A DNA stretch of 64,000 nucleotides. Source: a virus. This document shows, piece after piece, positions 19,580 through 48,572 of the stretch. Every line of letters begins with the position of its first letter. Position 1 is the stretch's first letter. The notes beneath the pieces are model-generated. The model saw only the letters and a program-made list of their open reading frames with translations, ran no database searches and was not told the DNA's origin. The DNA is taken from the IMG/VR virus record IMGVR_UViG_3300008259_004660, positions 1 through 64,000 of that record. One strand, 5' to 3'. Both the position numbers and the translations under genes were made by a program.

Positions 19580-19588
19580 TATAAACAT

Positions 19589-19939
19589 ATGGCTAAACCA
19601 TTAACAACAGATCAGGCAAAAGATAAGATTTATAACCTAACCAAGCGTCTATTTGAACTTGAAAAGGACAAGAAGGCAGAAATGAAAACATATGCCGAAG
19701 AAGATAGAGAGTTGAAAAATGAAATTGAAGATACATACGAAAAGCAAAAACAAAAAGCCATTAGTGACGATGCCGCAAAAGGTCGTGTGTATGAAGCAAC
19801 CGAGAAGCGCCTTGAAATTGCGAAAGAAAAAAAAGCTAAAGCGCAAGAATACAAGGACGAAATTGGTGATGTTGTAAGCGAAATCTTTGCAGTATTTGCA
19901 GAGCAGGATGATCAAAACACTACCGGAACAAATCCATAA
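19589..19939 (+). CDS. coiled-coil hypothetical protein with internal duplication
   Basis: two similar halves (AKDKIYNLTKRLFELEK / AKGRVYEATEKRLEIAK). Confidence 0.55.
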   Translation: MAKPLTTDQAKDKIYNLTKRLFELEKDKKAEMKTYAEEDRELKNEIEDTYEKQKQKAISDDAAKGRVYEATEKRLEIAKEKKAKAQEYKDEIGDVVSEIFAVFAEQDDQNTTGTNP

Positions 19940-19958
19940 AATAAAAAAGGTTATATAA

Positions 19959-21257: not shown

Positions 21258-21937
21258 TGAAAATCAGTTATCTTGTAACTTGTCATAACGAGACACTTGA
21301 GCTTCTTGAATTGATTGAGAAGCTCAAGAAGCATATTGATTCTGATGCACCAAATGATGAAGTTGTCATACTTGACGACTTTTCAACGAACGATGAAACA
21401 ATAAAGATATTAAACAAAGCAAGGTCATATGGGTTTACTGTTGTACAACATGCATTGAACAAAAATTTTGCTGAACACAAAAATTATGGCAGCAAAAGAT
21501 GTGTTGGTGATTACATCGTTCAAATAGACGCCGACGAATATCCGCATTCAACTCTTCTTTACAACATGAAAGAACTGCTTGAGGCAAATCCAATGGTTGA
21601 ATTGTATCGTGTTCCAAGAGTTAATATTGTAAGAGGAGCAACAGAACAAGACGCTAGAACATGGGGATGGAATATTTCCAAATTACTTGATTACGGAGAT
21701 CTTCCTATCATAAACTGGCATCACGGTGACTATCAATCAAGAATATATAAGAACAGCTTGAAAATTCAATGGCACAAACCTCTGCATGAAACAATTGTTG
21801 GTGCGGAATATGTATCTCAATTGCCAAAAGAAGTTGATTGGGCATTTATACACGACAAGACAATAGATCGTCAACGTGCGCAAAATATGTTTTATAATCA
21901 AAATTGGTCTGTAAAGGCCAATATGGGGCATGGATAA
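21257..21937 (+). CDS. GT2 glycosyltransferase
   Basis: KISYLVTCHNE, ILDDFS, QIDADE. Confidence 0.85.
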   Translation: MKISYLVTCHNETLELLELIEKLKKHIDSDAPNDEVVILDDFSTNDETIKILNKARSYGFTVVQHALNKNFAEHKNYGSKRCVGDYIVQIDADEYPHSTLLYNMKELLEANPMVELYRVPRVNIVRGATEQDARTWGWNISKLLDYGDLPIINWHHGDYQSRIYKNSLKIQWHKPLHETIVGAEYVSQLPKEVDWAFIHDKTIDRQRAQNMFYNQNWSVKANMGHG

Positions 21938-21940
21938 TTT

Positions 21941-22579
21941 ATGAGCAAATTAACACAAATAGGACTGAATTGCGGAACAGACAAGGCGTATTGGCACAAA
22001 TATACTCCTTTTTACGAAAAATATGTTAGTAACTATGTAAATCCAAATCTACTAGAAATTGGAGTTGCCAATGGTGCGTCGTTGAAAATGTGGGAACAGT
22101 ATTTTGGTACATCAACGATTGTTGGTGTTGATATAATCGACAAACGTGGATTTGAAACTCAAAACATAAAGACACTGATTGCAGATCAGAGTAAACCAGA
22201 AGAACTATTGAAGTGTCTTGATATATGCAAAGAATACGAAATCATGGTTGATGATGGTAGTCACATCATCGGACATCAAATTTCTTCAATGGCCACTCTT
22301 TTTCCATATTTGAAATCGGGTGGAGTTTACTTTCTTGAAGATCTTCATACTTCTTTTTGGAAAAACGAAGAAGGAGTAAAGTATGCCAATCCAAATAAAG
22401 ATGCAGTAACTGCATATGATTTCTTATACAATATTTCAAACAATATTCAGTTTGAAACACCACATGCTACGGCAGAACAAATACAGTACATACGAGATAA
22501 TACCGTGCGTATAGAATTTTTCTCAAGAATGGAGAATGATTTTAATGATAGCGTGACGAGTGCCATTTTGAAGAAATGA
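21941..22579 (+). CDS. class I SAM-dependent (sugar O-)methyltransferase
   Basis: LLEIGVANGASLKMW, VDDGSH, YFLEDLHTS. Confidence 0.85.
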   Translation: MSKLTQIGLNCGTDKAYWHKYTPFYEKYVSNYVNPNLLEIGVANGASLKMWEQYFGTSTIVGVDIIDKRGFETQNIKTLIADQSKPEELLKCLDICKEYEIMVDDGSHIIGHQISSMATLFPYLKSGGVYFLEDLHTSFWKNEEGVKYANPNKDAVTAYDFLYNISNNIQFETPHATAEQIQYIRDNTVRIEFFSRMENDFNDSVTSAILKK

Positions 22580-23385
22580 ATTCTTGTGCATTCAACGGAA
22601 GACTCGGCAATAACATGTTTCAGATTGCCGCCACACTTTCTCTGGCCAAAAAGTCCAAAGATGCTGTGGTATTTCCGCACACTACATATGCTGGACACAG
22701 AGGAATAAAGCCAGTCGATCTTGGCATATTTGGTTATGATTTTCCCAGAGGAGAATTGCCAAGTGAAAATACTAGGTATGAAGAAAAAGATGACATATAT
22801 TCAGACATACCTGTAAGCAAGAATCTTACACTTTGTGGATTTTATCAATCATATCAGTATTTTGATGACATTAGAGATGAATTAATCGACAAATATTTTG
22901 TTCCAAACAAAGACATAGCTGAACGTTTGTCGAAAATTGAAATATCACCGAACGCGACTGGTGTAAGTGTAAGGCGCGGCGATTATATCATGCTGCAACA
23001 AAATCACTGTGTATTAAGTGAACAATATTACAATGATGCATTTGAAAAGTACTGCACGGACTCGGATCAATTATTTGTGTTATCGGATGATTTTGATTGG
23101 TGTAAACAGACATTTGGTGGAAATGTGATATATGTTGAAGATAGTGTTGGAGTACAATTGTTTCTGATGACAAAAATGAAACATTTGGTGATGTCTAACA
23201 GCACATTTGCTTGGTGGGGAGCATATCTTAACAGAACAAGTGGAAACATTGTGATGCCAGATCCTTGGTATGGTCCAAATTACGATGGTAGAGGAAAAGG
23301 ACTCATCTATCCAAAATGGAAAGTTTTGAATCACAAGCGTGAAGTGCAGCCTTGGACTGGTGTAACCAAAAATATGATTGATTGA
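22576..23385 (+). CDS. GT11 alpha-1,2-fucosyltransferase-like
   Basis: GRLGNNMFQ, SVRRGDY, SNSTFAWWGAYL. Confidence 0.9.
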   Translation: MNSCAFNGRLGNNMFQIAATLSLAKKSKDAVVFPHTTYAGHRGIKPVDLGIFGYDFPRGELPSENTRYEEKDDIYSDIPVSKNLTLCGFYQSYQYFDDIRDELIDKYFVPNKDIAERLSKIEISPNATGVSVRRGDYIMLQQNHCVLSEQYYNDAFEKYCTDSDQLFVLSDDFDWCKQTFGGNVIYVEDSVGVQLFLMTKMKHLVMSNSTFAWWGAYLNRTSGNIVMPDPWYGPNYDGRGKGLIYPKWKVLNHKREVQPWTGVTKNMID

Positions 23386-23388
23386 ACT

Positions 23389-24303
23389 ATGAAGAATGTC
23401 GTAATAAGCATGTTTGTTTTTCCTTGGGAGATTGATGCACTCGAACGAGTGTTGATCTCACTTAAGGAAGCATCATGTTTTTGTGATAGTGGTGTACGAT
23501 ACACTTTATCCATCACATTGGATATCACTGACAAGAAAACGGATTGGAGTAAATCAACCATCCCATCTTCATTTTTCAGAGACAAGTTTGAAAATTTCAA
23601 GGCTTTATGTAATTGGTGCGATATTGATTTTGATTATAATGAACAGAATGACTGCTTTGGGTCAGCCGCCAAAAGAAGAAAAGATTCCATCAAATACAAA
23701 GACAAATGTGATGCATTTATATGGTTGGACCCAGATATGTATTTTCCCATGCATATACTACAGGTGTTGAATGTAGGTTTAAACTCAATCAAAGACAAGC
23801 TGTATATTCTTACTCCAGAGCTTATACGATATTGGGATAGTTCATGGGATGTTATCGTGAATAAGAATTTCTTGAATGAGCCGCACAACCACAGAGATTA
23901 TTTTGACATGTATTCTATTAACAAGGTGGCACAGGAAATAGATTCTCCATACATATCAAAGTTGGATAATGGTACCATAAAGTTTGGCGGCGGATGGTTT
24001 ACTTGTATTTCTCATGATCTTATGCAGACAGCCACTGTACCAGAATTCATTGGAGAATATGGACCAGATGATACATGGCTTACGCATTTTTCATATGAGT
24101 ATAATAGAAGTAAGCGCATGGTGGTTATAAGCCAACATGTGATGAAAAACGTGGTTGTAACAGAAATTGGTAAAAAGTATATAGTAGAAAATCCATATAA
24201 AAAATATTTATCTTTAAATCCCATTGACATTGATGCACATAAGAGTAAAGTGTGGGAAGAATTTGGTGCAAAGCTCAAAGAACATATTTCTAAAACAGTA
24301 TGA
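23389..24303 (+). CDS. GT-A fold glycosyltransferase-like protein
   Basis: WLDPD (DxD), KFGGGWF, YGPDDT; inside glycosylation island. Confidence 0.5.
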   Translation: MKNVVISMFVFPWEIDALERVLISLKEASCFCDSGVRYTLSITLDITDKKTDWSKSTIPSSFFRDKFENFKALCNWCDIDFDYNEQNDCFGSAAKRRKDSIKYKDKCDAFIWLDPDMYFPMHILQVLNVGLNSIKDKLYILTPELIRYWDSSWDVIVNKNFLNEPHNHRDYFDMYSINKVAQEIDSPYISKLDNGTIKFGGGWFTCISHDLMQTATVPEFIGEYGPDDTWLTHFSYEYNRSKRMVVISQHVMKNVVVTEIGKKYIVENPYKKYLSLNPIDIDAHKSKVWEEFGAKLKEHISKTV

Positions 24304-24872
24304 AAATTTCATTATCAAACGTAATCTTGGACTGTCTTACTACATCTCATATCGAACATATCCATCCACAAGCAAACGAATGGTTTCATTTGCAGTCTGG
24401 TAAAGAGCATTACAGATTACTGATTCATCTGTCGTATTGCTATAACAACATTCAAATCTCAGATATTGGAACGTACAGAGGCGCTTCAGCCATTGCATTG
24501 GCTCAAAATCAAAACAACAAAGTATTCAGTTTAGATGTGGGTGTATTTAGAAATGAAATACCATATAGCAATATAGAATTTTGTGTTGGACATTTTCAAA
24601 ATGATTCAAACATACAAGAAAAAATCCTAAAATCGGAACTGATATTCTTAGACATAGATCATTTGTATCATAATGAAATATGGTTTTATAATTTTCTTGT
24701 AGAAAACAATTGGAAGGGAATAATGCTTTGCGATGATATTCATCTTAGCGATGAGATGGAAAGATTTTGGAGAGAAATTAAACATGAAAAGTACGATATA
24801 ACACAGTACGGTCATCATTCTGGTACTGGAATTGTGTTGTTCAGCAACGAAACAACCTTAAACCTATCATAA
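24300..24872 (+). CDS. class I SAM methyltransferase
   Basis: DIGTYRGASA, FLDIDH, CDDIH. Confidence 0.8.
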   Translation: MKISLSNVILDCLTTSHIEHIHPQANEWFHLQSGKEHYRLLIHLSYCYNNIQISDIGTYRGASAIALAQNQNNKVFSLDVGVFRNEIPYSNIEFCVGHFQNDSNIQEKILKSELIFLDIDHLYHNEIWFYNFLVENNWKGIMLCDDIHLSDEMERFWREIKHEKYDITQYGHHSGTGIVLFSNETTLNLS

Positions 24873-24873
24873 C

Positions 24874-25446
24874 ATGCCAGACGGATTTACACACTATAAA
24901 GGGTTCAGAGCAGCACAACACGGCGATTTTCCAAATGTATTTGGTCCATTCTTGGAAGAGCACAAATTTGACATTATCATCGAGATCGGAACATTGAATG
25001 GAGGATTGACAAGATATCTAAGAGATGCATCTCCAAGCTCAAGAATTGTAAGTTATGATATACGAAGCCAACCAGAACATCCTCAACTGATTGAATGTGG
25101 AATAGAAGTAAAGATAGTAAATATCTTTGGAGATAAAGAAGTAATTGATCAAGAAGCCTTGGATATATTGAAGTCCAAAGGTAAAAAGCTTATTCTGTGC
25201 GATGGTGGTAATAAAGCAGGAGAATTCAATATTCTATCACAATATGTTAACTCTGGAGATTTCATCATGGGACATGATTATGCCAAGTCATCCAAATATT
25301 TTCGAGAGTATATCAATGGCAAAGTGTGGGATTGGTTGGAACTGGAAGATATTCAAATATCAGAAGCATCTACCAAATATGGTCTAATTGAGTATAAACC
25401 AGATCTATTTCAATCCATAGTATGGGTTTGCAAGACAAAGAACTGA
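24874..25446 (+). CDS. CmcI-like methyltransferase/hydroxylase
   Basis: IIEIGTLNGGLT, LCDGGNK..EF, GHDY. Confidence 0.7.
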   Translation: MPDGFTHYKGFRAAQHGDFPNVFGPFLEEHKFDIIIEIGTLNGGLTRYLRDASPSSRIVSYDIRSQPEHPQLIECGIEVKIVNIFGDKEVIDQEALDILKSKGKKLILCDGGNKAGEFNILSQYVNSGDFIMGHDYAKSSKYFREYINGKVWDWLELEDIQISEASTKYGLIEYKPDLFQSIVWVCKTKN

Positions 25447-25447
25447 T

Positions 25448-26038
25448 ATGGAAGAGTATAAAACAGAAGACTATATTGTTGATGGAGACCACAAACCGTG
25501 GGGAGGACATTCTACGGTTATTCTTTTGGAGGAAAATGAACAATATATTCATGGAAATGTGTTAGATATAGGATGTAATACTGGTGGTATAACTTATTGG
25601 TTGGGACAAAACAAAAAAGTAACTTCAATAACTGGGGTTGATATAAACTTAAATGTCAAAGAAGGATTTGAAAAAAATCTTTCTGGGGTGGGTATACCAT
25701 TTAAATTCATATGCGCCAATCTTGTAGAAAAGAAAATAAACGAAGAGACATATGATACGGCAATTTCATTTCATTGCATAGAGCATATTCTTGAAAAACA
25801 CGTTGATGCTTTTATATCCAATTCTACCGCAGGACTGAAAATCGGAGGACATTTGATTGTTAGTATTCCATATATGAAGGAATACAAAGACGACCACCAT
25901 AGGGCGTTTTACAACGACAAACAACTTAAAAACATACTTGAAAGAAATAACTTTGAAACTATCAAGTGCAATTATTCAGAACAAGACTCCAGATGGAGAG
26001 AAAAGCACTTGATCAACGGATTGTTTGTTAAAAAATGA
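25448..26038 (+). CDS. class I SAM methyltransferase
   Basis: VLDIGCNTG, GVDIN, HCIEHI. Confidence 0.85.
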   Translation: MEEYKTEDYIVDGDHKPWGGHSTVILLEENEQYIHGNVLDIGCNTGGITYWLGQNKKVTSITGVDINLNVKEGFEKNLSGVGIPFKFICANLVEKKINEETYDTAISFHCIEHILEKHVDAFISNSTAGLKIGGHLIVSIPYMKEYKDDHHRAFYNDKQLKNILERNNFETIKCNYSEQDSRWREKHLINGLFVKK

Positions 26039-26799
26039 AAATTACAAGTGTAATCAATTATTGTACTATCGATCACATGTTTCTTAAGCCATGTATTGAC
26101 GGTGTGCTCCCATTTTCAGAAAAGGTTATTGTTGCGTACTGCGACCATTTCTTGGATGGAACACCAGAAAACAGAGAACTCATCAATAAAGGAATATCCG
26201 AAAATCCAAAAGCTGAGTTTATTGAGTTTGAATATGACCCAACTCAAAGTTCAAGATGGCATCATAACGCATGTCGCAAGTTGGGAATAATGAACGCATC
26301 AGAAGGCACAGACTATTTCATGTTTCTTGATGTGGACGAAGTACTTGAGGCGGACAAGTTCATTAAATGGTGGAGTATGCAGCAAAATAATTTAAAAGAG
26401 AGTTACAGATTGGCTTGCTATTGGTATTTCAGAGAATTTAAATACAGACTAAAGGTGTGGGAAGAAGCAATTGCGTTGGTAAGAGCGGGTAGGCTCACAC
26501 AAAACGATAATATTATTTTTCATCAAGAAGAACGCAAGGCGATGTTTTGGTGCTTGCCAGAGGAAATGAGAATGGATAAATGTAAATTGGACGGTCTTCC
26601 ATTTTCACATCATTTTTCATGGGTAAGATCCAAGGAAGGTATGTTGAAAAAAGTAAAATCTTGGGGACACAATAAGGATCTTGATTGGTCTGTATTAGTC
26701 GAAGAAGAATTTTCACAGCCATTCAGAGGCAAAGATGTGATTTTTGGAGATAGAGAATATGATATTGTTGAACCCTATCTTAACATTCCAATAACATGA
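26035..26799 (+). CDS. GT2-like glycosyltransferase
   Basis: FLDVDE (DxD), HHFSWVRSKE.MLKKV.SWGH. Confidence 0.7.
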   Translation: MKITSVINYCTIDHMFLKPCIDGVLPFSEKVIVAYCDHFLDGTPENRELINKGISENPKAEFIEFEYDPTQSSRWHHNACRKLGIMNASEGTDYFMFLDVDEVLEADKFIKWWSMQQNNLKESYRLACYWYFREFKYRLKVWEEAIALVRAGRLTQNDNIIFHQEERKAMFWCLPEEMRMDKCKLDGLPFSHHFSWVRSKEGMLKKVKSWGHNKDLDWSVLVEEEFSQPFRGKDVIFGDREYDIVEPYLNIPIT

Positions 26800-27506
26800 A
26801 AGTAATATACAGATTCAGCGATAGAGGATATCCAAAACAGAAGCTCCCAATTGTAAACAATGAAAATTGTTTCAAAAACTTCTGCGTCAATTTTTTGAAT
26901 CGCGATTTATCAGATCTTACATTGATAAGAGACTACTGTAATCCATCCACTCATGCGCAATTTGATTCCATCATAAAAGACATAAACATGGGAGGCTGTC
27001 CAAAAGTTATTGATACAAATAACGGCAACGCCGGTTCATTTAAATTTGCTTTGGAGTATGCCATCAACAACTTCGGTGAAGATGAAATTGTATATTTTGT
27101 AGAAGGAGATTATATCCACGATAAAAATTCAAGAAACATGTTATTGGAAGGATATAGGCTGTTGGATGTGGCGGTAGAATATGTCACACTATATGCCCAT
27201 CCTGACAAAGAAATGGAAGAAGGAATAAAGCCAGAGTATATTTTCAGGTCTGATAGTAGTTATTGGAGAAGCTGCGACAGTACAACCATGACATTCTCAT
27301 CAAGAGTAAAGACCTTGAAAGAAGATAAACCTATATTTGACAAATGGATTTCAGGGGTTCATCCAAATGACCATCAGATGTTTTTGGAATTAAGATCAAA
27401 GGAGCGTATTCTTATTTCTCCCATGCCCGGGCATTCAACGCACGGCGAAACAAAATGGCTGAGTCCGTTTAAAGATTGGAGCAAAATATTGGATGCTTCT
27501 TTATGA
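26796..27506 (+). CDS. GT-A fold glycosyltransferase-like protein
   Basis: GNAGSF, YFVEGDYIH, YVTLY.HPD. Confidence 0.6.
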   Translation: MKVIYRFSDRGYPKQKLPIVNNENCFKNFCVNFLNRDLSDLTLIRDYCNPSTHAQFDSIIKDINMGGCPKVIDTNNGNAGSFKFALEYAINNFGEDEIVYFVEGDYIHDKNSRNMLLEGYRLLDVAVEYVTLYAHPDKEMEEGIKPEYIFRSDSSYWRSCDSTTMTFSSRVKTLKEDKPIFDKWISGVHPNDHQMFLELRSKERILISPMPGHSTHGETKWLSPFKDWSKILDASL

Positions 27507-28090
27507 ATATTGTACAGATAGGAGCAAATGAAGGAAGAGACCATGTCTTTGAACTGGCGTCCACAAATAAGGAAAAACTTAACAAGTTAATTCTTGTTGA
27601 GCCAGTGGTGTTCTTGGAGACAAAATTACGTGAATGTTATTCCGATTTTCCACAGGCAGTATTTGAAATGGTTGGGATTGTTCCAGAATATTCTGATGAA
27701 AAAATGACACTGTATTATCCATTAGAAGGTAATTATGAAACCAGTACATTTGATATAAATCATCTTCTTAATCATGGATGTCCTATGAAAAAAATAGCGA
27801 CGATATCGGTTCCCGTAATGACAATCGACGAATTGATGGAAAAACATAAACTAACTGAAGTTGATTATCTTTTCATCGACGCCGAAAGTATGGATTGTAG
27901 AATACTACAAAGCATAGATTTCAAAAAATATAAGATTAAAAATATACAATTTGAAAGTGAACATTCAGACGGAACAAAAAAACGTGGAAAAAAACTTGAT
28001 GAACTTGTAGAATATCTTAAAAGCAACAATTATGATGTGGTTCGTGGTCCTTGGGCAGACCACAATGCAACACTGATTATAAATCCTTGA
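27503..28090 (+). CDS. FkbM family methyltransferase
   Basis: VQIGANEG, LVEP, LFIDAESMD..IL. Confidence 0.85.
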   Translation: MNIVQIGANEGRDHVFELASTNKEKLNKLILVEPVVFLETKLRECYSDFPQAVFEMVGIVPEYSDEKMTLYYPLEGNYETSTFDINHLLNHGCPMKKIATISVPVMTIDELMEKHKLTEVDYLFIDAESMDCRILQSIDFKKYKIKNIQFESEHSDGTKKRGKKLDELVEYLKSNNYDVVRGPWADHNATLIINP

Positions 28091-28126
28091 CTTAACTTCC
28101 AAACTGATACATTATACCAGAATAAT

Positions 28127-28576
28127 ATGATGAAACAAAAGAAAAAAGCAGCGTATTATGTATCGTTTATAGTTTCGGCAATTGGACTGCCGTTCGCCAT
28201 ATCAGCACTATTGGCATTAAAAGTTCAATGGATGAACGATACGTTGTTATCGGATATATTGAAAACGGCGAGTAACGGTCTTATGATTATGATTGAAATG
28301 TACTTTATATCAGAAATATTCAAATATGATGCGGGGTATACTGAGGTAGTAACTACAGAATATAAACTGTTCAAGTGCAGAGAGTCAGGGAACGATACGG
28401 ATTTTATGATGTTTGCCGACAGTGAAGAAGAATTACAAATTTATTTTGATGTTACTCATCCAAATAAGAAGTTTCTTATTGAAGAAGCTGAAATGAATGC
28501 AAAAAGCATCAAAATGAAGGTTATCAACGGAGATGTGGAGTACGAGGACGATGAAGACCGCAGCGTTCATTCTTAA
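28127..28576 (+). CDS. membrane hypothetical protein
   Basis: two N-terminal TM segments; TTGACT promoter upstream. Confidence 0.55.
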   Translation: MMKQKKKAAYYVSFIVSAIGLPFAISALLALKVQWMNDTLLSDILKTASNGLMIMIEMYFISEIFKYDAGYTEVVTTEYKLFKCRESGNDTDFMMFADSEEELQIYFDVTHPNKKFLIEEAEMNAKSIKMKVINGDVEYEDDEDRSVHS

Positions 28577-29327
28577 TCACAATCTGCCCGATTACACGGA
28601 CATGTTATATGAGTCTCTCAAGCCATATGAGAGGCACGATTATGATTTGTATGTGATCGACAATGGATCTTCACTCGAAGGAAAAAGCAAACACACTTCT
28701 TTTGAGCTTGGAGAAAATGTGTACTTTGGCGGTGGATTCAACGCCGCCATGCAATTTACACTTGAAAATAAACAGTATGACAGCATGTTGTTTCTCAACA
28801 ACGATCTCACAGTACATCCATACAATTTTGTTAGATCATTGCGCGAAGAAATGTACGAAGAAGTATTTTTGGACAAGCTTGGGTATCAGGAACAGAAGTA
28901 CGACATTGTTTCACCATCTTTCTACAATATTGAACCAAATGGACAATGTCATTGGAAAAGTATGCACAGTTGGAGCAGCAAGGATATCAGAGACGTAGAT
29001 TATATTGATTTTCAATGTCCTCTTATTTCTCGCCGCTTACTTGAACAGGTAAAGGAGATTGATTCTGATCTATTGTATGGTTGGGGAATATGCTTCTACT
29101 TTGCTCTTGTGGCAAGAAATAATGGTTATAAACTTGGGATGGTTGACCGCTGTTGTGTATTGCATCACAACTCACTCACAGTAAAGCGGGGCGTGGCTGG
29201 CTTGGATATTAAAACATATTGCATGCGAGCTGAAACGGGTCAGCAGAACTTTTTTTCAAAGAAGAACCTATTGAGAGAATACATTGAACTTAGACGAAAA
29301 GCAGAAAATTATGAATACCGTAGTTGA
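28551..29327 (+). CDS. GT2 glycosyltransferase
   Basis: ILNHN, VIDNGS, YFGGGFN, FLNND. Confidence 0.85.
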   Translation: MKTAAFILNHNLPDYTDMLYESLKPYERHDYDLYVIDNGSSLEGKSKHTSFELGENVYFGGGFNAAMQFTLENKQYDSMLFLNNDLTVHPYNFVRSLREEMYEEVFLDKLGYQEQKYDIVSPSFYNIEPNGQCHWKSMHSWSSKDIRDVDYIDFQCPLISRRLLEQVKEIDSDLLYGWGICFYFALVARNNGYKLGMVDRCCVLHHNSLTVKRGVAGLDIKTYCMRAETGQQNFFSKKNLLREYIELRRKAENYEYRS

Positions 29328-29619
29328 AACACAACTTGAATTTGATTTCATGAAGCCTACACAGGCTGATTTGAAATTTGACACGGACTTGTATATCAGA
29401 AACAACAGTTCCAGTAAACTAATAGCATTCTGTCCCACTTATAAAGTAATTTTTCATAACGCCGATGGAGAAGTTGGCGTGTTGGATTGGTCAGATGGCA
29501 CAATGAAATTCAGAGGAGATGCCGATGCTGCTGGACAATTATTCTTCGATCATATCATAAAGCAGCATGTTCAGATGGCATTTCAGTTTGAAAGCCAAAA
29601 GAGTGGATGGAAATCATGA
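29311..29619 (+). CDS. hypothetical protein
   Basis: coupled ORF in island. Confidence 0.5.
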   Translation: MNTVVETQLEFDFMKPTQADLKFDTDLYIRNNSSSKLIAFCPTYKVIFHNADGEVGVLDWSDGTMKFRGDADAAGQLFFDHIIKQHVQMAFQFESQKSGWKS

Positions 29620-30500
29620 GTGAAACAAAATATACTTGGATTATCAACACATACAAAAGCCTGCCATATTTGAAGCTGGCGATTGAATCTATTCGTGAAA
29701 ATGCTCATTATCCAAATCAACCAATCATTGTATACACAGAAAACGACGAAGAGACATATGAATGGCTGAAACAACAAAATGATATAGAAACCATTTATGA
29801 AAAAAATGAAGTTCCAAAAGGAATTGGTGGTGGAGTAAATGAAGCCGTCAAACGAGTTAAAACAGAGTTCTTTAGTCTTATACACAGCGATTTTTACATC
29901 AGTAGGCATTATGATGCTCCACTGTTTGATCTTGTATCTAATACTGAAAAGCCCCTCGTAGCATGTTCTTGGAGACTTGAACCAAATATATTCAATAATC
30001 AGGATAGGCTTGGTACAATATTTTCCCCACCAGATACAATCGGTGGATTTGGAGCATATCATCATGATTTCAAAAAGAGTGAATTTCTTGATTGGGCAGA
30101 TTATTATTTCTCTATATCAAACGCTCCCACATTCAGAAAAGTTGAGGGAGTATCATACATGATGCGTACAAAATATTTTGTGCCAAATGATTCTCGCTTT
30201 GCCCCAAGTTCATTTGAAGATCATATGCAAAGTGTGATTATGCAGTTGAAAGGATATGACTTCGCCGTATATGGAAGTGCGGTTGCTTGGCATTTTGGAG
30301 CACGCAGCAGCCATTTTCTTGGTCAACATGATAAGTTGACTGGGACATCTGATCGACAGAAACAAAGTGAAGCAAAAAACATTCGTACATGGGTTGGTTT
30401 GTGGGGAGAGCCTCCATCATATGATGAAGTTGGGTTTATAAAAGTAACAGAACAAATGCGTCAACGCTATATAAACAATAAGGACTTGTATCTATCATGA
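29616..30500 (+). CDS. GT2 glycosyltransferase
   Basis: IINTYKS, LIHSDF, FEDH, HFGARSSH. Confidence 0.8.
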   Translation: MSETKYTWIINTYKSLPYLKLAIESIRENAHYPNQPIIVYTENDEETYEWLKQQNDIETIYEKNEVPKGIGGGVNEAVKRVKTEFFSLIHSDFYISRHYDAPLFDLVSNTEKPLVACSWRLEPNIFNNQDRLGTIFSPPDTIGGFGAYHHDFKKSEFLDWADYYFSISNAPTFRKVEGVSYMMRTKYFVPNDSRFAPSSFEDHMQSVIMQLKGYDFAVYGSAVAWHFGARSSHFLGQHDKLTGTSDRQKQSEAKNIRTWVGLWGEPPSYDEVGFIKVTEQMRQRYINNKDLYLS

Positions 30501-30682
30501 CGGAGGCAGCGCAGAACTATTTTAAAACGTATTACAAGCTTCAACGTTTTTTTGATGAACAGATAAACGATAAGAAACTTGAAAGCGAGCTTAAAACAAA
30601 ACTTAATGAGGCTTACGCTCAAATGACAGAGAAAGAACGTGAACTACTTGACATTGTGGGTAAAAACAATATAAAGGAATGA
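30497..30682 (+). CDS. hypothetical protein
   Basis: coupled ORF. Confidence 0.5.
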   Translation: MTEAAQNYFKTYYKLQRFFDEQINDKKLESELKTKLNEAYAQMTEKERELLDIVGKNNIKE

Positions 30683-31890
30683 TGAAATATACAGCAAAAG
30701 ATGTATCGTTTATTATGCCATCGTATAATACGTTAAATTATACCCTGATGGCGTACAGAAGTTTACGAGAATATTACCCAGAAAATGAAATAATTGTACT
30801 TGATGATGGAAGTACAGATGGTAGCGCAGATTATTTAGAAGCGCAGATTAAACTTGACGACAATCTTCGTATTTGGATAAATAAAACTGGCAATATTCTT
30901 GGTCATACTATCACATATGATATGGGAATCAAGATGGCTAAAAATCCTCTAGTTACTATCTTTCACAGTGATATGATCTGTGGTAAGAATTATCTTGAGA
31001 ATATGCTCAAGCATTACAAGGAAAAAACAGTAATATGTGCCACAAGAATTGAACCAGAGGGAATATACCCATCTGGAAAAGAAAAGATACTAAAACCATT
31101 TGGAATTGAGTTTCATGAATTTAAACGTGAAGAGTTTAATGCATTTGTTGAACAAGAACAAAAAGAAAGCGAAGATAAAATCACAAAAGGAATATTTGCA
31201 CCGTGGTTGATAAGTAAGAATGACTTTCTTGATATCGGTGGGCATGATGCAAAAAGTTTCGCACCGTATCCAGAAGAAGATGCAGATTTATTTCTAAGGT
31301 ATCATCTTGCTGGATATAACCTAATACAAAGTAGAGACAGCTTATGTTGGCATTGGATCAGCAGAGGGCATAGAAGTTGGGCCAAGAATGGTGTGGGCAA
31401 AGACGACAGCATGTTTCAATTTTATCAAACAAGAGCAAGGCGCAATTATCTTCGCAAGTGGCACAAATGGATGAGTTTTGATGTCGATCATCATCCAATA
31501 TCACACCCTGTGTATAATGTGGGATTTGTATTAACCGATGTAGTGTCTGAAGATTTTCTTCATTTTGTAGAGCCTTGGGCTTCAAATATCTTTGTTGATA
31601 ACATGGTTTGCGCTGAAAGATATATTGAAAGAGAACAGCCAACTACAAAGGTTGATTTGAGGTCAAGAATTCTAAATCATGGATACATCGATCAAACAAA
31701 TAATGACATCCTACTGTATTTTAGCCAAAAAGAATTCATGGTTTCAGGTAATGATAATGCCGCCATCATAATGAAACTTACAGACATATTGTCAGAAGGC
31801 GTGGAAAATAATTCCGAACTTGAGCTTGGTATATTCAAAATGAAAACAAAAACTGTGAAGGATATCCGCAACTCTCTTATTAAGATATGA
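30679..31890 (+). CDS. GT2 glycosyltransferase with C-terminal extension
   Basis: FIMPSYN, LDDGSTDGS, FHSDM, EEDAD, HWISRG. Confidence 0.9.
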   Translation: MMKYTAKDVSFIMPSYNTLNYTLMAYRSLREYYPENEIIVLDDGSTDGSADYLEAQIKLDDNLRIWINKTGNILGHTITYDMGIKMAKNPLVTIFHSDMICGKNYLENMLKHYKEKTVICATRIEPEGIYPSGKEKILKPFGIEFHEFKREEFNAFVEQEQKESEDKITKGIFAPWLISKNDFLDIGGHDAKSFAPYPEEDADLFLRYHLAGYNLIQSRDSLCWHWISRGHRSWAKNGVGKDDSMFQFYQTRARRNYLRKWHKWMSFDVDHHPISHPVYNVGFVLTDVVSEDFLHFVEPWASNIFVDNMVCAERYIEREQPTTKVDLRSRILNHGYIDQTNNDILLYFSQKEFMVSGNDNAAIIMKLTDILSEGVENNSELELGIFKMKTKTVKDIRNSLIKI

Positions 31891-42055: not shown

Positions 42056-42112
42056 TTTGCGCTATCATGTAGGTGATTAAAGCATACTCATGTTTATATT
42101 TATTATATATAC

Positions 42113-43465
42113 ATGAGATTACTGCCATTAACAGGTCAAGTAGAACTGGAAGAATCTAATCCAGAGAAGCTAATTAAAGCTTCAAAAGGTGACTATTTTT
42201 ATAGAAAAGGAAATGATTTGTTTTATGTTGTAGGAAAGGATGGAGAAAGACGAAGAATATATATTCCTAGAAAAAGTTTCGCACTTAAATATAGAAATCA
42301 GCCTTGGTATTTGTCTATTTCGGACCATCTGATAATATTTCAAAATTCATATGAGGTTTGGATAAAAGTTGGAAGTGGATATAATTCTGTTGGATGGCAG
42401 CTTTTGAGTTATAAGTCTTTGGATTCTATTAATCCGGCAACACCTACACCAACACCAACGACTACACCTACACCAACTCCAACGGCTACACCTACACCAA
42501 CTCCAACAGGAGCGCCTACATCAACTCCTACACCAACACCCTCGCCTGCTCCTACAGCAACCCCATCGCCCACACCAGCACCAACGGCTACCCCAACTCC
42601 AGCACCGACAGCAACACCAACACCAACTCCGACTGATACACCAACTCCAGCACCAACTTCAACGCCAACACCAACGCCAACAGCAACACCAACACCTGCG
42701 CCAACAGCAACGGCTACACCAGCACCAACTGCAACACCAACCCCAGCAGCACCGACTGATACGCCAACACCAACACCTGCGGCAACTGCAACACCAACAC
42801 CTGCGCCAACTGCAACGGCTACACCTGCGCCAACAGCAACACCAACACCTGCGCCAACTGCAACGGCTACACCAACGCCTGAACCAACGGATACACCAAC
42901 ACCAACCCCAGAACCTTCTTCAACACCGACACCAACGCCTGAACCAACGGATACGCCAACGCCGACACCAGAGCCAACGGATACGCCAACACCAACGCCT
43001 GAGCCAACGGATACACCAACACCAACGCCTGAACCAACGGATACTCCAACGCCGACACCAGAGCCAACGGATACGCCAACACCAACCCCAGAACCTTCTT
43101 CAACACCGACACCAACGCCTGAACCAACGGATACTCCAACGCCAACACCAGAGCCAACGGATACGCCAACACCAACGCCTGAACCAACGGATACACCAAC
43201 GCCGACCCCTGAACCTACCAACACTCCAACGCCGACACCAGAGCCAACGGATACGCCAACACCAACCCCTGAACCTACCAACACTCCAACGCCGACACCA
43301 GAGCCAACGGATACACCAACGCCGACCCCTGAACCAACCAACACTCCGGTTCCAACAGACACTCCATCACCAACCAATACACCAGAACCAACACCAACGC
43401 CAACGCCTACAATATATGTTGGATTTGCAAGAAGTCCTATTAGTGGCAGCGAACTATTCCCGTAA
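42113..43465 (+). CDS. Pro/Thr mucin-like putative virion fibre protein
   Basis: ~105-aa N-terminal domain ending EVWIK.GSG....GW, then ~330 aa PT repeats; no signal peptide. Confidence 0.8.
42878..43357 (+). repeat. 16 tandem 30-nt units encoding PEPT(D/N)TPTPT or [10 protein letters not shown]
   Basis: GAACC/GAGCC recurs every 30 nt from 42881 to 43331; PEPSS variant recurs at 180 nt. Confidence 0.95.
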
Positions 43466-43502
43466 AATTAATCACACAGTTTTCAATCAAGTTTGAAATA
43501 AA

Positions 43503-44216
43503 ATGATCAAAATATATTTAACCAGTTCAAATCCAAATGGTGTCGTACAAGGAAACTTGGGTGATACATTTTACAGAGAAGGAAATAATTTTTATTTGCT
43601 CAATGCAGCAAAAGTGTTAAGTTCTTTATCAATTTCTAAAAAAGCATTTGCTTTTCAGTTATTAAGATCTTCAGCAAATCAATACAAAGAGAATGAAATA
43701 GCGTTCAGACAGCCGAGGGAAGTTTGGATTAAGAAAACAAGAACCAGAGACAACAGACAAGGTTGGACATTTGTAAAAAACGCAACTCCGTTGGCGCAAA
43801 TGATGCCAACACCGACACCAACTCCTACTCCAAATCCTACATACACACCTACACCAACTCCAACGGTTGCACCAACAAGCACTCCTACCCCCACACCAAC
43901 TCCAACAAATGCAGTAACAAACACACCAACCCCTACACCAACTCCTACACTTACAGCAACGCCAACAGCAACACCTGCGCCAACGAATACTCCTACACCA
44001 ACAGCAACACCAGCACCAACAGCCACACCAACGGCAACGCCAGTGCCTACAGCTACGCCAACACCAACACCCACATTGGCTCCAACGGCAACACCAACGC
44101 CAACATCTACACCAGCACCAACAGCAACTCCCGCTCCAACAAGCACACCAACTCCAACACCAACTCCGACACCAATACCGCCGGGATCTGGAGTTGTATT
44201 TGTTAGATATATTTAA
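43503..44216 (+). CDS. Pro/Thr mucin-like protein, paralogue of 42113
   Basis: same N-terminal domain (SNP..V.G..GD.FYR...EVWIKK....QGW) plus PT repeats. Confidence 0.8.
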
Positions 44217-44221
44217 AAATT

Positions 44222-46516
44222 ATGAACGCTGAAAACATAGACATTGCAAAAAAAGAAATAGAGCGATTAATAGTTGATAATCCATATGATGCATATGAAA
44301 TTGCAATAGGATGCAAATCTACAGGTGGAACATATACAGAAGAAAAGGTAATACGATTTGGCGTAGAACAAAAACTTCCCTTGGATCAGATACCAACCGA
44401 AAAATTAATTCCAAAAACAATTAGTATAGATGGGGTAGAATATAAAACGGATGTATACGTGGCTCCAACAGAAGTATACACCGCAGCAGCTATAAGAAAA
44501 ATAGACGATGTCGATTCGCAAGATTTAATACGTGTAATGGCAGTATCATATTGCAACCCTATAGGAGACAATAGTGTTCCTCCTGTAGTTTCTACGCCTG
44601 TTAGTTATAACAGAGCAACAACAAGACCATTGAGAGGTGGAGTATCAATGGCAGCGCCGCCGCCGACTGGATATGTTAATGCAGGAACTTTGGGATTGAT
44701 GGTGGTAGATAGCATGGATAGCAAATTGGTTGGACTAACAAATAATCATGTGTGTGGAAATCCCGGCGGATCAATTAACAAATCCAAATTTTTCGCAAAC
44801 GATGAATCATCTGCAAGTTTTGGGTATTACAATACTATAAACATATATCAGCAAAGTTCGTGGGATAGTGGCGTAGTAAACAAAGCATCGGACAATATAG
44901 GATTTGCAAAAAGACAATTTCCATTATCCACCAATTTCATTAATTACATTGATGCGGGAATAGTAAATTTGACTGCGTCTATTGTAGACAGCGGTAGTTG
45001 GAATGCAGTTGGATCAAGTTTTGTATCATCTCCACCTTTTGCAACGACTGCGGAAATAGATTCTATTACATCCAGTAATCTCGTATTCAAATCTGGAAGA
45101 ACAACGGGACCAATAGGACCAGATAATTACAGTGGGTGCGTTATTCAAATTACAAACACATCAACGGCATTATATGTTTCTGGATATACACCAAGCGGTC
45201 CCGCATTGCTTTTCGGAGATTGTTTGAAAATTGAAAGCACGGGTACAGTTGTCGGAATTGGTGGAGATTCTGGATCGGTGGTATATGCGAAAATAGGAGG
45301 AGTTTGGAAGGTAGTGGGATTGTTTTTTGCAGGAAACGGTGATGGTAGTGCGGGATATGCATGTAGAATAGATAGGGTTTCAAATTTATTAAAAATAAAT
45401 GCATATGATGGTGGATCATATTCCGCAGATCCGGGAACAAGAACTTATGTCACCGCAAGTCTTGCAGAGTTTGGAGGAAAAGCCAGCGCATCTTTTAATG
45501 GAGAAATTTATTGGCAGGTTGGAAAATATGAAATTTCCGATGGACCAACCCCGACTCCAACGCCTACACCTACGTTGACGCCTACGCCTACGCCAACATT
45601 AACATCTACGCCGACACCAACCCCAACACCAACCCCAGTTCCAAATACACAAAAAGCAATTTTTGGATATGGTTACAATGGATCTATATATTTGTCTCTT
45701 ACCAATCTTGTAAATAATACTGGCGTAGTTGCGACGGATACGACAGGTGTAGGTACAGCGAGAATGGATCTTGCGGCTGCTGGATATGGAACAGATAAAG
45801 CCATTTTTGGATATGGTACTGGTGGAGGTGGTGTGGTTTCACTTACAAATCTTGTAAGCAATACTGGCGTGGTAGCCACTAACACCACTGGTGTTGGAAC
45901 TGCCAGATCTACTTTGGCAGCGGCAGGTTATGGTGGAGACAAAGCCATTTTTGGATATGGATATACATCAGGTGCAGTCAATGTTTCACTTACAAATCTT
46001 GTAAGTAATACTGGTGTGGTGGCAACAGACACCACTGGTGTTGGAACTGCTAGACACTTTTTGGCAGCATCTGGATATGGCAGTGACAAATCTATATTTG
46101 GATATGGAAATGGTACTGGAGGATACCTTTCTCTTACAAATCTTGTGAGCAACACTGGAGTTGTGTCTGGAGATACATCAGGTGTTGGTACTGGAAGAGA
46201 ATATCTTGCAGCGGCTGGCTATGGTACAGATAAAGCAATCTTTGGCTATGGTACCACAATAAACGCTCTTTCTATGACAAACCTTGTAAGTAATACTGGT
46301 GTGGTGGCAACAGACACCACTGGTGTTGGAACATCAAGACTTGCCCTAGCAGCCGCAGGTTATGGAAATGATAAGGCAATATTTGGCTATGGACGAGACT
46401 TTGGATATTTCTCAACAACAAATCTTGTAAGTAATACTGGAGTTGTTGCGACAGATACAACTGGAGTTGGCACGAGTAGAATGGGACTAGCCGCCGCTGG
46501 ATATTCCTTGTCATGA
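44222..46516 (+). CDS. trypsin-like serine protease - PT linker - six-repeat beta-propeller
   Basis: GTLGL, TNNHV (His), IDAG (Asp), KSGRTTG, GDSGS (Ser); six KAIFGYG...TNLVSNTGVV.TDTTGVGT.R..LAAAGYG repeats. Confidence 0.85.
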   Translation: MNAENIDIAKKEIERLIVDNPYDAYEIAIGCKSTGGTYTEEKVIRFGVEQKLPLDQIPTEKLIPKTISIDGVEYKTDVYVAPTEVYTAAAIRKIDDVDSQDLIRVMAVSYCNPIGDNSVPPVVSTPVSYNRATTRPLRGGVSMAAPPPTGYVNAGTLGLMVVDSMDSKLVGLTNNHVCGNPGGSINKSKFFANDESSASFGYYNTINIYQQSSWDSGVVNKASDNIGFAKRQFPLSTNFINYIDAGIVNLTASIVDSGSWNAVGSSFVSSPPFATTAEIDSITSSNLVFKSGRTTGPIGPDNYSGCVIQITNTSTALYVSGYTPSGPALLFGDCLKIESTGTVVGIGGDSGSVVYAKIGGVWKVVGLFFAGNGDGSAGYACRIDRVSNLLKINAYDGGSYSADPGTRTYVTASLAEFGGKASASFNGEIYWQVGKYEISDGPTPTPTPTPTLTPTPTPTLTSTPTPTPTPTPVPNTQKAIFGYGYNGSIYLSLTNLVNNTGVVATDTTGVGTARMDLAAAGYGTDKAIFGYGTGGGGVVSLTNLVSNTGVVATNTTGVGTARSTLAAAGYGGDKAIFGYGYTSGAVNVSLTNLVSNTGVVATDTTGVGTARHFLAASGYGSDKSIFGYGNGTGGYLSLTNLVSNTGVVSGDTSGVGTGREYLAAAGYGTDKAIFGYGTTINALSMTNLVSNTGVVATDTTGVGTSRLALAAAGYGNDKAIFGYGRDFGYFSTTNLVSNTGVVATDTTGVGTSRMGLAAAGYSLS
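45650..46510 (+). repeat. six ~48-aa propeller-blade repeats
   Basis: AIFGYG and TNLVSNTGVV recur at ~141-147 nt spacing. Confidence 0.9.
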
Positions 46517-46560
46517 TATTCTTGGTAGATTTAAAAAATATTTGATACTTATATACAAAT

Positions 46561-47430
46561 ATGACATACGTGCCACATCAGTTGGAAGAATCTAGTCCAG
46601 AAAACATTGTTTCTGCGCCAATCGGAAGCATGTTTTTAAGAGACAATAATAATTTTTTTCTTCTTAGTAATGGCAAGTTAGAGTCTTTGCAAATTTTAAA
46701 ATCATCATTTGCCATACACTACAGAAACAAAATATGGTTTCATACTTTGAAAGAAGAAACCATAACCTTTAAAAATGAAAAAGAGTTGTGGATAAAGAAA
46801 ACTGGACAAGGAAAAACAGGATGGGAATTTGTAAGCAACAAGAGCATAGAAGCGGAACAATATGAGTCCCCAGTTGCAACAGCAACACCAACACCAACGC
46901 CAGCACCTACATCTACTCCAACGCCAACGCCAACTGATACACCAACACCAACGCCAGCACCTACATCTACGCCAACACCAACGCCAGCGCCAACTGATAC
47001 ACCAACACCAACGCCAGCACCTACATCTACGCCAACACCAACGCCAGCGCCAACGGCAACACCAACGCCGACTCCTACGGCAACTCCTTCTGGCCCAATG
47101 GCGGCTGGATCTGGCAGCATGACATGGGCAGCGGTTGGTAATTGGACAATAAATTATACAAACGGAGTATATTCGTCGGGAACTTGGACATTTGAATTTT
47201 CAAACACAACTTCAAATGTAGGAGGATCATTTGAAACCACGGTGACATACTATTATACTGGTGGTCCTACTACAATAACCGTAGGATTTAATCCTTCATA
47301 CAACACAAATCCTGCATACTTGAATGTAAGCACAGTAACATATCCTGATTTGTACAAGATAGTAATGACTCCAAGACAGTCTCTAATAGACGCGGGCGCA
47401 GCTGGATCGATAACCATAGATATTACATAA
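46561..47430 (+). CDS. PT-linker protein, third paralogue of 42113 N-terminal domain, with C-terminal beta domain
   Basis: [20 protein letters not shown]...[14 protein letters not shown]; PT repeats; aromatic/Thr-rich C-terminus. Confidence 0.8.
46931..47050 (+). repeat. exact 60-nt tandem duplication
   Basis: 46931-46990 identical to 46991-47050. Confidence 0.9.
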
Positions 47431-47720: not shown

Positions 47721-48572
47721 GTGTGGGCTGTGAATAACGGTCCACACATTTCCATTTTCAGCAAGGCACTGTATAGTAATTGGTGCCATTATCCTACTTA
47801 TAATCTATTATTCGATTGTGGCGAAGGGTGTGCTACTCATATTGGAAATCACCTCGCGGGTATTGACAGCATTTTTCTCACACATGATCATGGTGATCAT
47901 ACCCTCGGTATTCCAAGTGTAGTTGGATGTCGTAATGCTGGCAGAGGAATGAGTCGCAATAAAGACACAATGGAAAATAACAAACCGTTGTATGTATATT
48001 ATCCCGATGACAATTTCTTGATGAATGATCTTATCAAGTTTGTGCAATCTCGCACAGATGGATGGCTTCGTTATGACATGAAGTTTATTCCTATCTCTGC
48101 TGGTTTTGAAAAACAACTTGGTAAGAATGTATTTCTGCGTGCTTTCAATATGCAGCATCAAAAGAACAAAAGCACTCTGGGTTATGTTATTTACGAAAAT
48201 CGCACAAGACTCAAGAAAGAATATCAAGGGAAAGATATTCCAACTCTGATCAAGCATGGTGTTGACGGTAAAACTCTCAATGAGAATTATCGTGCCAACT
48301 TGTTCGCATATTGCTTGGATGCATATGCTATTCCAGATTATAATCAACTCATTGAGTGCAAAGATGTTATAATGGACTGCACATTTATCAACGCCGATGA
48401 TCGTGATGATCCTACGCACTTTACACTTGACGAAGCATATAAATTTTGTCAGTGTATCGGAATCAAAAACATAATTGCCGCACATCTGTCTGGTCGCTAC
48501 AATTATAATGAAGTATCCAAAGATTATCCCAGTATTAAATTCATCAATCCATATAAAGTAAACGAATTATGA
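47721..48572 (+). CDS. rnz: ribonuclease Z/BN (metallo-beta-lactamase fold)
   Basis: LLFDCGEG, FLTHDHGDHTLG (HxHxDH), exosite-like insertion, DCTF, HFT, HLSGRY; GTG start. Confidence 0.85.
   Translation: MWAVNNGPHISIFSKALYSNWCHYPTYNLLFDCGEGCATHIGNHLAGIDSIFLTHDHGDHTLGIPSVVGCRNAGRGMSRNKDTMENNKPLYVYYPDDNFLMNDLIKFVQSRTDGWLRYDMKFIPISAGFEKQLGKNVFLRAFNMQHQKNKSTLGYVIYENRTRLKKEYQGKDIPTLIKHGVDGKTLNENYRANLFAYCLDAYAIPDYNQLIECKDVIMDCTFINADDRDDPTHFTLDEAYKFCQCIGIKNIIAAHLSGRYNYNEVSKDYPSIKFINPYKVNEL

Follow-up and report, generated by a model that had tools for sequence, protein, structure and literature searches.

A Pro-Thr-rich gene cassette of a large uncultured T4-like phage may encode modular appendage proteins paired with a NAL1-type serine protease

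T4 Hoc and branched tailspike adaptors combine a conserved attachment domain with variable distal domains. The Pro/Thr-rich linkers of cellulases and cell-surface proteins, like the spacers that precede LPXTG or PGF-CTERM signals, are extended, variable in length, and often O-glycosylated, and the LPXTG, PEP-CTERM, and PGF-CTERM systems join a domain, a spacer, and a short C-terminal signal to a dedicated protease. Large environmental phages hold many long low-complexity, "mucin-like" genes that usually go unannotated. Here we describe one set of such genes, a four-gene Pro-Thr (PT) cassette at positions 42113-47430 of IMG/VR record IMGVR_UViG_3300008259_004660. The window analyzed is the first 64 kb of this 184.8-kb record, for which CheckV gives a completeness of 78%.

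Three other described systems bear on the cassette. Trimers of rice NARROW LEAF 1 (NAL1) stack through intermolecular β-strand exchange, and the ATP-stabilized trimer leads to a hexameric cage (PMC12012508). In Streptomyces, UmbB has an extended terminus that is gripped by the trypsin fold of UmbA, an arrangement that puts lectins at the spoke tips; UmbA itself lacks a catalytic triad and is inactive (PMC11062931). Finally, virion glycosylation is described for cluster F1 mycobacteriophages such as Che8, with major capsid proteins reported to be the substrates (Freeman et al. 2023, as cited in PMC11256854).

We propose that the cassette encodes a late-expressed, fast-evolving set of modular phage appendage proteins with a tail-docked protease, a reading that we hold with about even confidence. 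It is very likely that the products are late, virion-type modular proteins with a common N-terminal adaptor. The genes, named here by their first nucleotide, and their parts are as follows.

42113-43465, + strand: gene for a 450-amino acid (aa) protein, with an N-terminal domain (N-domain) at 42113-42418, a 333-aa PT spacer at 42425-43423, and a short tail
43503-44216, + strand: gene for a 237-aa protein, with an N-domain at 43503-43787, a 133-aa PT spacer at 43794-44192, and a tail that we term class A
44222-46516, + strand: gene for a 764-aa protein, with a protease module, a PT linker, and β repeats
44222-45532, + strand: protease module of about 437 aa, a NAL1-type serine protease of predicted chymotrypsin fold
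45533-45655, + strand: 41-aa PT linker within the protease gene, with a predicted local distance difference test (pLDDT) score below 50 in the AlphaFold2 (AF2) model
45656-46516, + strand: β-repeat domain of six 48-aa all-β repeats, propeller-like
46561-47430, + strand: gene for a 289-aa protein, with an N-domain at 46561-46854, a 78-aa PT spacer at 46867-47100, and a β-sandwich-like C-domain of ~109 aa

In the proposed arrangement, the N-domain of the three paralogues would probably fix them to one particle site. The PT tract would form an extended spacer whose length may change by repeat slippage and across which domains may be swapped, and the distal end would be either a small binding-type domain (46561) or just a short β-strand tail (42113 and 43503). 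The hydrophobic-aromatic tail of 43503 would serve as the partner signal of the protease, most likely docking it as an added β-strand. The result would be a two-piece fibre consisting of an anchor, a PT stalk, a protease head, and a propeller tip.

The four open reading frames (ORFs) are arranged head to tail on the plus strand, separated by gaps of 37, 5, and 44 nt. Their PT-rich regions measure 333, 133, 41, and 78 aa in gene order. An earlier reading of the letters alone (the original prediction) described four adjacent genes with long PT tracts; all four tracts are present, although that of the protease gene is a short linker. The absence of signal peptides that it reported agrees with a hydropathy scan of all four proteins, wherein no signal-peptide-like or transmembrane (TM) segment was detected. 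The PT-coding DNA is made of tandem units of 24-180 nt as defined by Tandem Repeats Finder (TRF), for example with a period of 180 nt and an 89% match at 42884-43338. Minus-strand ORFs with Gly-Val ("GVGVG") translations were rejected as genes because they are mirror artefacts of the PT frames.

The source virus is a large uncultured T4-like phage, with a T4-type major capsid gene at 164.5-165.9 kb of the genome (PF07068, E=1e-77). Neither megablast of 16 kb nor tblastn of the N-domain and of the protease found a match among GenBank phages. Scans of bacterial and archaeal genomes turned up no relative, and these scans were limited to patterns, such that absence from those genomes is not thereby proven.

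The proteins encoded by 42113, 43503, and 46561 share an N-domain of ~100 aa with pairwise identities of 28-38%. This alignment bears out the shared E(V/L)WIK....GW motif of the original prediction. In an 18-sequence alignment, Arg27, Glu75, Trp77, and Lys79 are invariant, and Trp88 (the Trp of the GW pair) is nearly so. Exactly three copies of the domain are present in the 184.8-kb genome, and the short N termini of two further PT proteins (95113 and 96178) have no detectable relation to it.

To what extent the N-domain occurs elsewhere was assessed by an exhaustive HMMER profile search over 1.84 billion representative proteins. The search yielded 96 clusters, 62 of them at E<1e-10, with proteins of 74-1455 aa. 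The domain begins within the first ~40 residues in 95 of the 96 clusters, mostly at residue 1-10, and a PT tract follows it directly in 48. Those payloads that can be named are PA14/GLEYA, Laminin_G_3, and RCC1 repeats, all of which are binding-type modules.

The AF2 model of the N-domain (pLDDT 83-91) has four strands and two helices followed by three strands. No Pfam family matches the domain, and no PHROG match falls within residues 1-77, the matches found beginning only at residue 78 or later and running into the PT tract. Likewise, ESM Atlas searches with the N-domain returned only weak leads (scores of at most 0.89, low recognition). The E(V/L)WIK....GW motif had been called typical of phage fibre anchors, a claim for which the databases offer no support; it is instead the signature of an undescribed adaptor family that is new here. 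Like T4 Hoc and the tailspike adaptors, this family has a conserved end, variable binding-type payloads, and arrays of paralogues. Unlike them, its N-domain has no match by sequence, and fold searches with the full 289-aa model of the 46561 protein returned only generic β-sandwich matches to the C-domain (Z ~5, Foldseek E>0.01), which is modeled with low confidence.

Comparison among family members reveals the role of the PT tracts. In six orthologues of the 46561 protein, both the N-domain and the C-domain are near-identical, the C-domain being strongly conserved throughout, whereas the PT tracts vary in length by 57-113 aa, in increments of about 10 aa. Thus, the tunable length suggested by the original prediction is seen among proteins with identical flanks. 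Another family member, P0223, joins an N-domain that is 70% identical to that of 42113 to a 46561-type C-domain, which indicates domain exchange across the repeat that encodes PT.

Of the relatives found, locus L007 is the closest, with a protease 64% identical to that of the cassette. In the same syntenic slot, between helicase/HNH genes and a gene for a hydrolase of the metallo-β-lactamase (MBL) fold, L007 carries six N-domain genes around the protease. The gene directly before that protease (L007:9625-9990, 121 aa) encodes an N-domain and the tail "GSGIIYVTYE," with the PT tract absent. Seven divergent clusters (P0147, P0160, P0164, P0165, P0170, P0177, and P0196) show the architecture of 43503, with PT tracts ranging from 0 to about 160 aa; two of them (P0160 and P0170) have an N-domain and a tail with zero PT.

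These comparisons provide direct evidence that the PT tracts are evolvable spacers and not the payload. PT cannot be the payload, since it is missing from orthologues or from proteins of identical architecture. The claim that the repeat itself is the payload is therefore not supported, given both the PT-less positional orthologue of 43503 in L007 and other PT-less members of the family. Moreover, the "almost nothing" said to follow the PT tracts of 42113 and 43503 proves to consist of recurrent tail motifs. The locus can be used as a key for reading such genes, in terms of a conserved attachment domain, a freely evolving PT spacer, and swappable glycan-binding heads. This layout would offer a ready-made means to change reach and specificity.

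PT tracts are a general linker of this phage. Six further PT-tract ORFs are located elsewhere in the genome (4425, 92855, 95113, 96178, 101018, and 113443), and the PT ORFs outside the cassette include LamG-like multi-domain proteins. An extreme PT load was observed in another phage record, IMGVR_UViG_3300042520_003271 (G004; loci L009 and L010), with 164 matches to a strict PT DNA pattern in 87 kb. The protease of G004 is 66% identical to that of the source phage, and the fragment, which is 24% complete, contains no gene of glycosyltransferase (GT) family GT60.

The tail of 43503 directs attention to the gene that follows it. Of 83 genes encoding this type of protease, 75 are preceded on the same strand by an ORF whose end lies no more than a few bases from the start of the protease. 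We compared the 58 distinct genes located directly upstream of a protease (120-3300 aa) with 683 other genes as controls, defining a strict tail motif as [IVLM][FYW]xx[FYW] within the last 12 residues and a linker as at least 50% Pro/Thr/Ser just before the motif. The tail motif is present in 35 of the 58 protease-upstream genes versus 12 of the 683 controls, and a Pro/Thr/Ser-rich linker before the tail in 31 versus 6. Linker and tail together occur in none of the 683 controls. By these sequence measures, a PT linker plus tail marks the protease-upstream gene in most of the 58 diverse phage loci. The only gene of the source genome that has both a PT linker and a class-A tail is 43503, which ends 5 nt before the protease gene.

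Apart from their tails, the upstream partners are unrelated to one another and carry Fib_succ_major, DUF285, or RCC1 domains, or belong to no family. Giant partners at two loci (L025 and L013) match the PHROG annotation "virion structural protein" with E values of 1e-62 to 1e-75. The tails span 7-13 aa and contain no TM segment, and the protease is soluble. We conclude that the protease plus tail is a widespread, unpublished module to which the cassette belongs. The original prediction overlooked this protease and its partner with the tail, which together are the core conserved element of the cassette. A tail-like strand ("N.AYVRYD..GRIV") is also found at the N terminus of four partners (L012:9417-9965, L014:4531-6591, L036:3827-4327, and L041:8448-9998).

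The remaining gene of the cassette encodes an intact NAL1-type serine protease whose catalytic activity is predicted from conserved residues. The protease contains His, Asp, and Ser in the catalytic order together with a GDSG motif. In a 54-sequence alignment, His176 and Gly-Asp-Ser350-Gly (G348-D349-S350-G351) show no variation, and the conservation of Asp244 is at least 90%. The AF2 model of the module, with pLDDT values mostly of 80-98, was matched by VIA to NAL1 with a Z score of 30.4 and a root mean square deviation of 3.0 Å over 319 aa, wherein residues 1-401 of the model align with NAL1 residues 91-454. Among other S1 proteases, the best reaches Z 17.7. Foldseek also recovers NAL1 (E=2e-11, probability 1.0), whereas a search of the PDB with the protease sequence gave no match.

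The similarity to NAL1 (PDB 7Y77, 8PN2, and 8PMG) thus extends over about 320 residues, including the ATP-binding-domain region and the protease domain, and the His-Asp-Ser triads have the same order. The proteins differ in that they share only about 15% identity and in that the phage protein has a PT linker, six C-terminal β repeats, and an upstream partner gene that bears a tail. The protease family is large and metagenomic, its members usually standing alone at 420-440 aa, and 273 IMG/VR stretches encode a NAL1-type protease. A full-text literature search found no paper that joins NAL1, serine protease, and phage.

The repeats that follow the linker conform to KAIFGYG...TNLVSNTGVV...GVGT.R, with a TRF period of 144 nt and 5.4 copies. 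DSSP assigns about four recurring strands per unit in a model with pLDDT values of 55-75, and no Pfam family matches the domain. We considered that the repeats might form a lectin propeller of the Photorhabdus type, but the phmmer match to 8q7u (E=0.18) is too weak to call a lectin.

How the tail and the protease might interact can be considered in light of NAL1 and UmbA. We favor docking of the tail to the protease over its cleavage, because of the analogy with NAL1 strand exchange and with the UmbA-UmbB complex. Like the Umb proteins, the cassette appears to combine a chymotrypsin-fold domain and a distal binding-type domain with a small adaptor, encoded alongside, that has an extended terminus. 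There are also differences. The structural match of the phage protease to UmbA is at the generic S1 level (Z 11.5), UmbB binds through its N terminus whereas the candidate strand of the phage protein is C-terminal, and the triad lost from UmbA is conserved in the phage protease. The last of these implies that the phage protease must cut something. Candidate targets are a virion protein, a protein of the host surface, and the tail itself, with cleavage of the tail as the main rival to docking.

The conserved triad leads to a second explanation, in which the tail is a processing or sorting signal: the protease would mature the upstream protein by cleaving it at its aromatic residues or, more radically, would transfer that protein to a virion protein in the manner of a sortase. 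Catalysis evidently matters, since the triad is conserved across the family, and the succession of a domain, a PT-rich spacer, a short C-terminal signal, and an adjacent dedicated protease mirrors the organization of sorted surface proteins. Tails are also duplicated in tandem at the C termini of the L012 and L014 partners, and they end the tandem proteases of another locus (L017). However, only 0-6 residues lie beyond the motif, such that trimming would remove almost nothing, and no acceptor is known. The presence of hydrophobic residues on both faces of the strand suits burial in a sheet, and both NAL1 and UmbA are precedents for binding rather than cutting. We regard processing as rather unlikely, if worth keeping in view.

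In a more specific version, the tail would be a sorting tag and the protease that reads it would be a trimeric clamp or a soluble, sortase-like transpeptidase, by means of which PT-stalked and possibly GT60-glycosylated proteins would be coupled to the particle. The cassette shares with sortase and exosortase systems a short conserved C-terminal signal after a Pro/Thr-rich spacer and an adjacent gene for a dedicated protease. It departs from them in that the phage tail has no membrane-spanning segment and the enzyme is a soluble serine protease, not a membrane or cysteine transpeptidase. We consider this version quite improbable. If true, it would amount to a phage-encoded "tag, stalk and attach" surface display across many large uncultured phage lineages.

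If the protease rides on fibres, phages may carry proteolytic heads to pass proteinaceous host envelopes; if it instead processes the tail, a new maturation or attachment chemistry would be at hand. A separate arrangement is seen at locus L017 (IMGVR_UViG_3300016472_000307), which carries a tandem array of five NAL1-type protease paralogues. A related short motif ("GTTYMNL" or "GTVYQHIPNL") ends most of them, and these proteins, each being the upstream partner of the next, may form a daisy chain.

The timing of cassette expression was approached through upstream sequences. The T4 late promoter TATAAATA is not enriched in this genome, with 6 forward sites versus about 17 expected and none before the cluster. 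This candidate was rejected, and a motif identified de novo took its place. A k-mer scan of upstream regions revealed two enriched motifs, the first of which, (T)ATATTTAT(A/T), has 37 sites on the plus strand and 10 on the minus strand, compared to about 11 expected per strand. When sites up to 80 nt upstream of a start were counted, 23 of the plus-strand sites qualified, and these are located 13-38 nt before the start codon. Among the genes headed by the motif are 42113 and those for the portal (phrog_213, E=4e-63), an adaptor-like protein, a 3407-aa giant fibre, and a 1300-aa capsid-cargo polyprotein. The sites relevant to the window are listed below.

42096-42103, + strand: putative late-promoter element ATATTTAT in the context TTTATATTTATTATATA, 17 nt before the start of 42113
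3966, 6152, 34390, 34954, 42096, and 56015: ATATTTAT sites in the window

L007 has kept the element ahead of its first N-domain gene. In addition, all 10 PT ORFs of the genome fall in motif-led units, compared to 55 of 200 other plus-strand genes (p=5e-6). These observations are consistent with ATATTTAT being a putative late promoter and with late expression of the cassette. Two PT ORFs outside the cassette can be noted here. One, at 4425-4868, encodes a 147-aa protein with a PT-rich tail end and lies directly behind gene 3979, which is itself led by the late-type motif. The other, at genome positions 113443-114990, has the same motif upstream, and in its 515-aa product, TM segments at the N terminus are accompanied by a long coiled coil and an uninterrupted (TP)11 run. 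The second enriched motif, TCTTGACT(TTT), is found ahead of 19 genes, most of them small, that cluster at 74-91 kb; its window sites are at 13854, 28127, and 52851, and it is probably a σ70-type -35 element of early promoters.

From these results we infer late timing, virion attachment, docking rather than cleavage, and any function of the protease, and several points weigh against this interpretation. Presence of the cassette proteins in the virion is predicted only indirectly. The N-domain is probably an adaptor, as judged from its architecture, the fold searches, which the C-domain dominated, having matched nothing to it. The assignment of ATATTTAT as a putative late promoter comes from its enrichment and the genes that it heads. 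The catalytic triad is strictly kept, as would be unneeded for docking of the kind carried out by UmbA, and the tail could be a substrate. The cassette also adjoins replication-type genes (helicase, HNH, and phosphatase), with the capsid gene far away at 164.5 kb.

This last point could indicate that the proteins have no place in the virion, but function within the infected cell or are freed upon lysis, for example as a protease with lectin-type helpers that work on the host envelope or matrix. A location among non-structural genes and the lack of homology to known structural families both fit such a role. The upstream motif common to the cassette, portal, and fibre genes does not, nor do the matches of protease partners from other lineages to a virion structural PHROG, and lectin-type payloads on long spacers would be hard to explain within a cell. 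On balance, a non-virion role seems very unlikely.

A further difficulty for the proposed appendage set is the 42113 protein, which may be a collapsed PA14 member or the bearer of a second kind of tail. Its tail, "TIYVGFA...LFP," is unlike the class-A tail and recurs at the end of an 835-aa PT protein encoded at 101018-103525. It also resembles the first ("TIYDGYFADD") and last ("IFY..FP") strands of the PA14 domain that sits after the PT tract in P0131 and P0128, although the match is too short for statistics. Conceivably, 42113 alone is a decaying member of the family, in which a PA14 payload has shrunk to a stub while the PT tract expanded neutrally by slippage. Very recent duplications of 90/180 nt inside the PT tract are consistent with decay, as are the PA14-like tail and the fact that no orthologue of the same architecture was found. 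However, the frame is open across 450 codons and the gene is the first after the promoter-like motif. Moreover, the same type of tail ends the PT protein beside the GT60 gene and resembles the end of P0130, which suggests that it has been kept for a reason. We thus consider decay of this gene unlikely.

PT tracts raise the question of O-glycosylation, and the window does contain enzymes that could contribute.

18104-31890, + strand: glycosyltransferase/methyltransferase island

The island encodes two GT4-like enzymes (18104 and 19959), three GT2 enzymes (21257, 29607, and 30679), and one GT11 enzyme (22576), as well as two methyltransferases (25448 and 27476), all predicted to be soluble and free of TM segments. 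Hence the island of the original prediction is real, and the phage has plenty of soluble glycosyltransferases. The GT11 enzyme belongs to the α-1,2-fucosyltransferase family (22576-23385) and one methyltransferase is of the FkbM type (27476-28090), which suggests that the island glycan is fucosylated and methylated.

A GT60 gene is located at 103919-104803 (PF11397, E=1e-47), right after the PT protein gene 101018-103525 and about 56 kb from the cassette. GT60 enzymes are polypeptide α-GlcNAc-transferases, and the region at about 101-110 kb resembles the cassette in that it lies in the same genome, has the same PT style, and places a 42113-type tail on the PT protein upstream of GT60. The cassette at 42.1-47.4 kb differs in having no adjacent GT. 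GT60 is present in 16 of 43 phage records that carry the protease versus 0 of 14 control genomes. When PT presence was scored by a strict (PT)3.5 DNA pattern and the source genome was included, the pattern was found in 14 of 17 GT60-positive records and in 9 of 27 GT60-negative ones (Fisher p=0.002). Restricting the comparison to records with a completeness of at least 90% gives counts of 3 of 3 and 0 of 7, and the pairing occurs in at least five protease clades. Pairing the records by phylogeny leaves the test without power (median p 0.5), because fragment contigs create false absences. The co-occurrence of PT and GT60 offers a concrete, cheap handle on phage protein O-glycosylation.

The original prediction went further, proposing that the PT tracts are mucin-like acceptors that form the payload and that the 18-32 kb island decorates them into a glycan brush on the virion. 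A multi-enzyme, wholly soluble island would fit cytoplasmic glycosylation of a soluble acceptor, and glycosylated mycobacteriophage capsids provide a precedent (PMC11256854). The association of PT with GT60 also points in this direction. In addition, the lead GT4 of the island is kept in both syntenic close relatives (G001 and G002) and in one other lineage (G014, G015, and G042), in which GT60 genes are located about 14 kb away from it. Its retention in the close relatives is, however, plain synteny. The enzyme is absent from the other PT-rich phages G004, G013, and G019, such that the expected co-occurrence of PT genes with the island across relatives does not hold, and PT tracts follow GT60 more closely. 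The brush is further at odds with the absence of PT from orthologous or architecturally identical proteins, the lack of power in the paired test, and the position of GT60, which adjoins a different PT protein. A brush built by the island therefore appears doubtful, with a small probability of being correct.

As an extra layer on the proposed PT spacers, O-glycosylation is nonetheless plausible from gene content. Were it to occur, the GT60 enzyme encoded at about 104 kb would be a stronger candidate for the initiating step than the enzymes of the 18-32 kb island, which may extend the glycans; nothing ties the island to the cassette. In contrast to secreted proteins with PT linkers, the phage proteins have no signal peptide, and any modification would be cytoplasmic. 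The F1 mycobacteriophages are comparable in that glycosyltransferases encoded by the phage are believed to act on proteins of its own particle. They differ in that their substrates are reported to be major capsid proteins, whereas the candidates here are PT spacers of accessory proteins.

Several other features of the window were noted. Just past the cassette, at 47721-48572, lies a gene for an MBL-fold hydrolase with a sub-threshold match to the anti-Pycsar Apyc1 family (PF23023, 20.4 bits; cut-off 50). Three tRNA-Leu genes are located at 754-837, 1143-1228, and 2189-2276, and a phage-encoded tmRNA at 8603-8996 carries the tag peptide AKRNLAKVSFLSVRKNADVEMLAAA.

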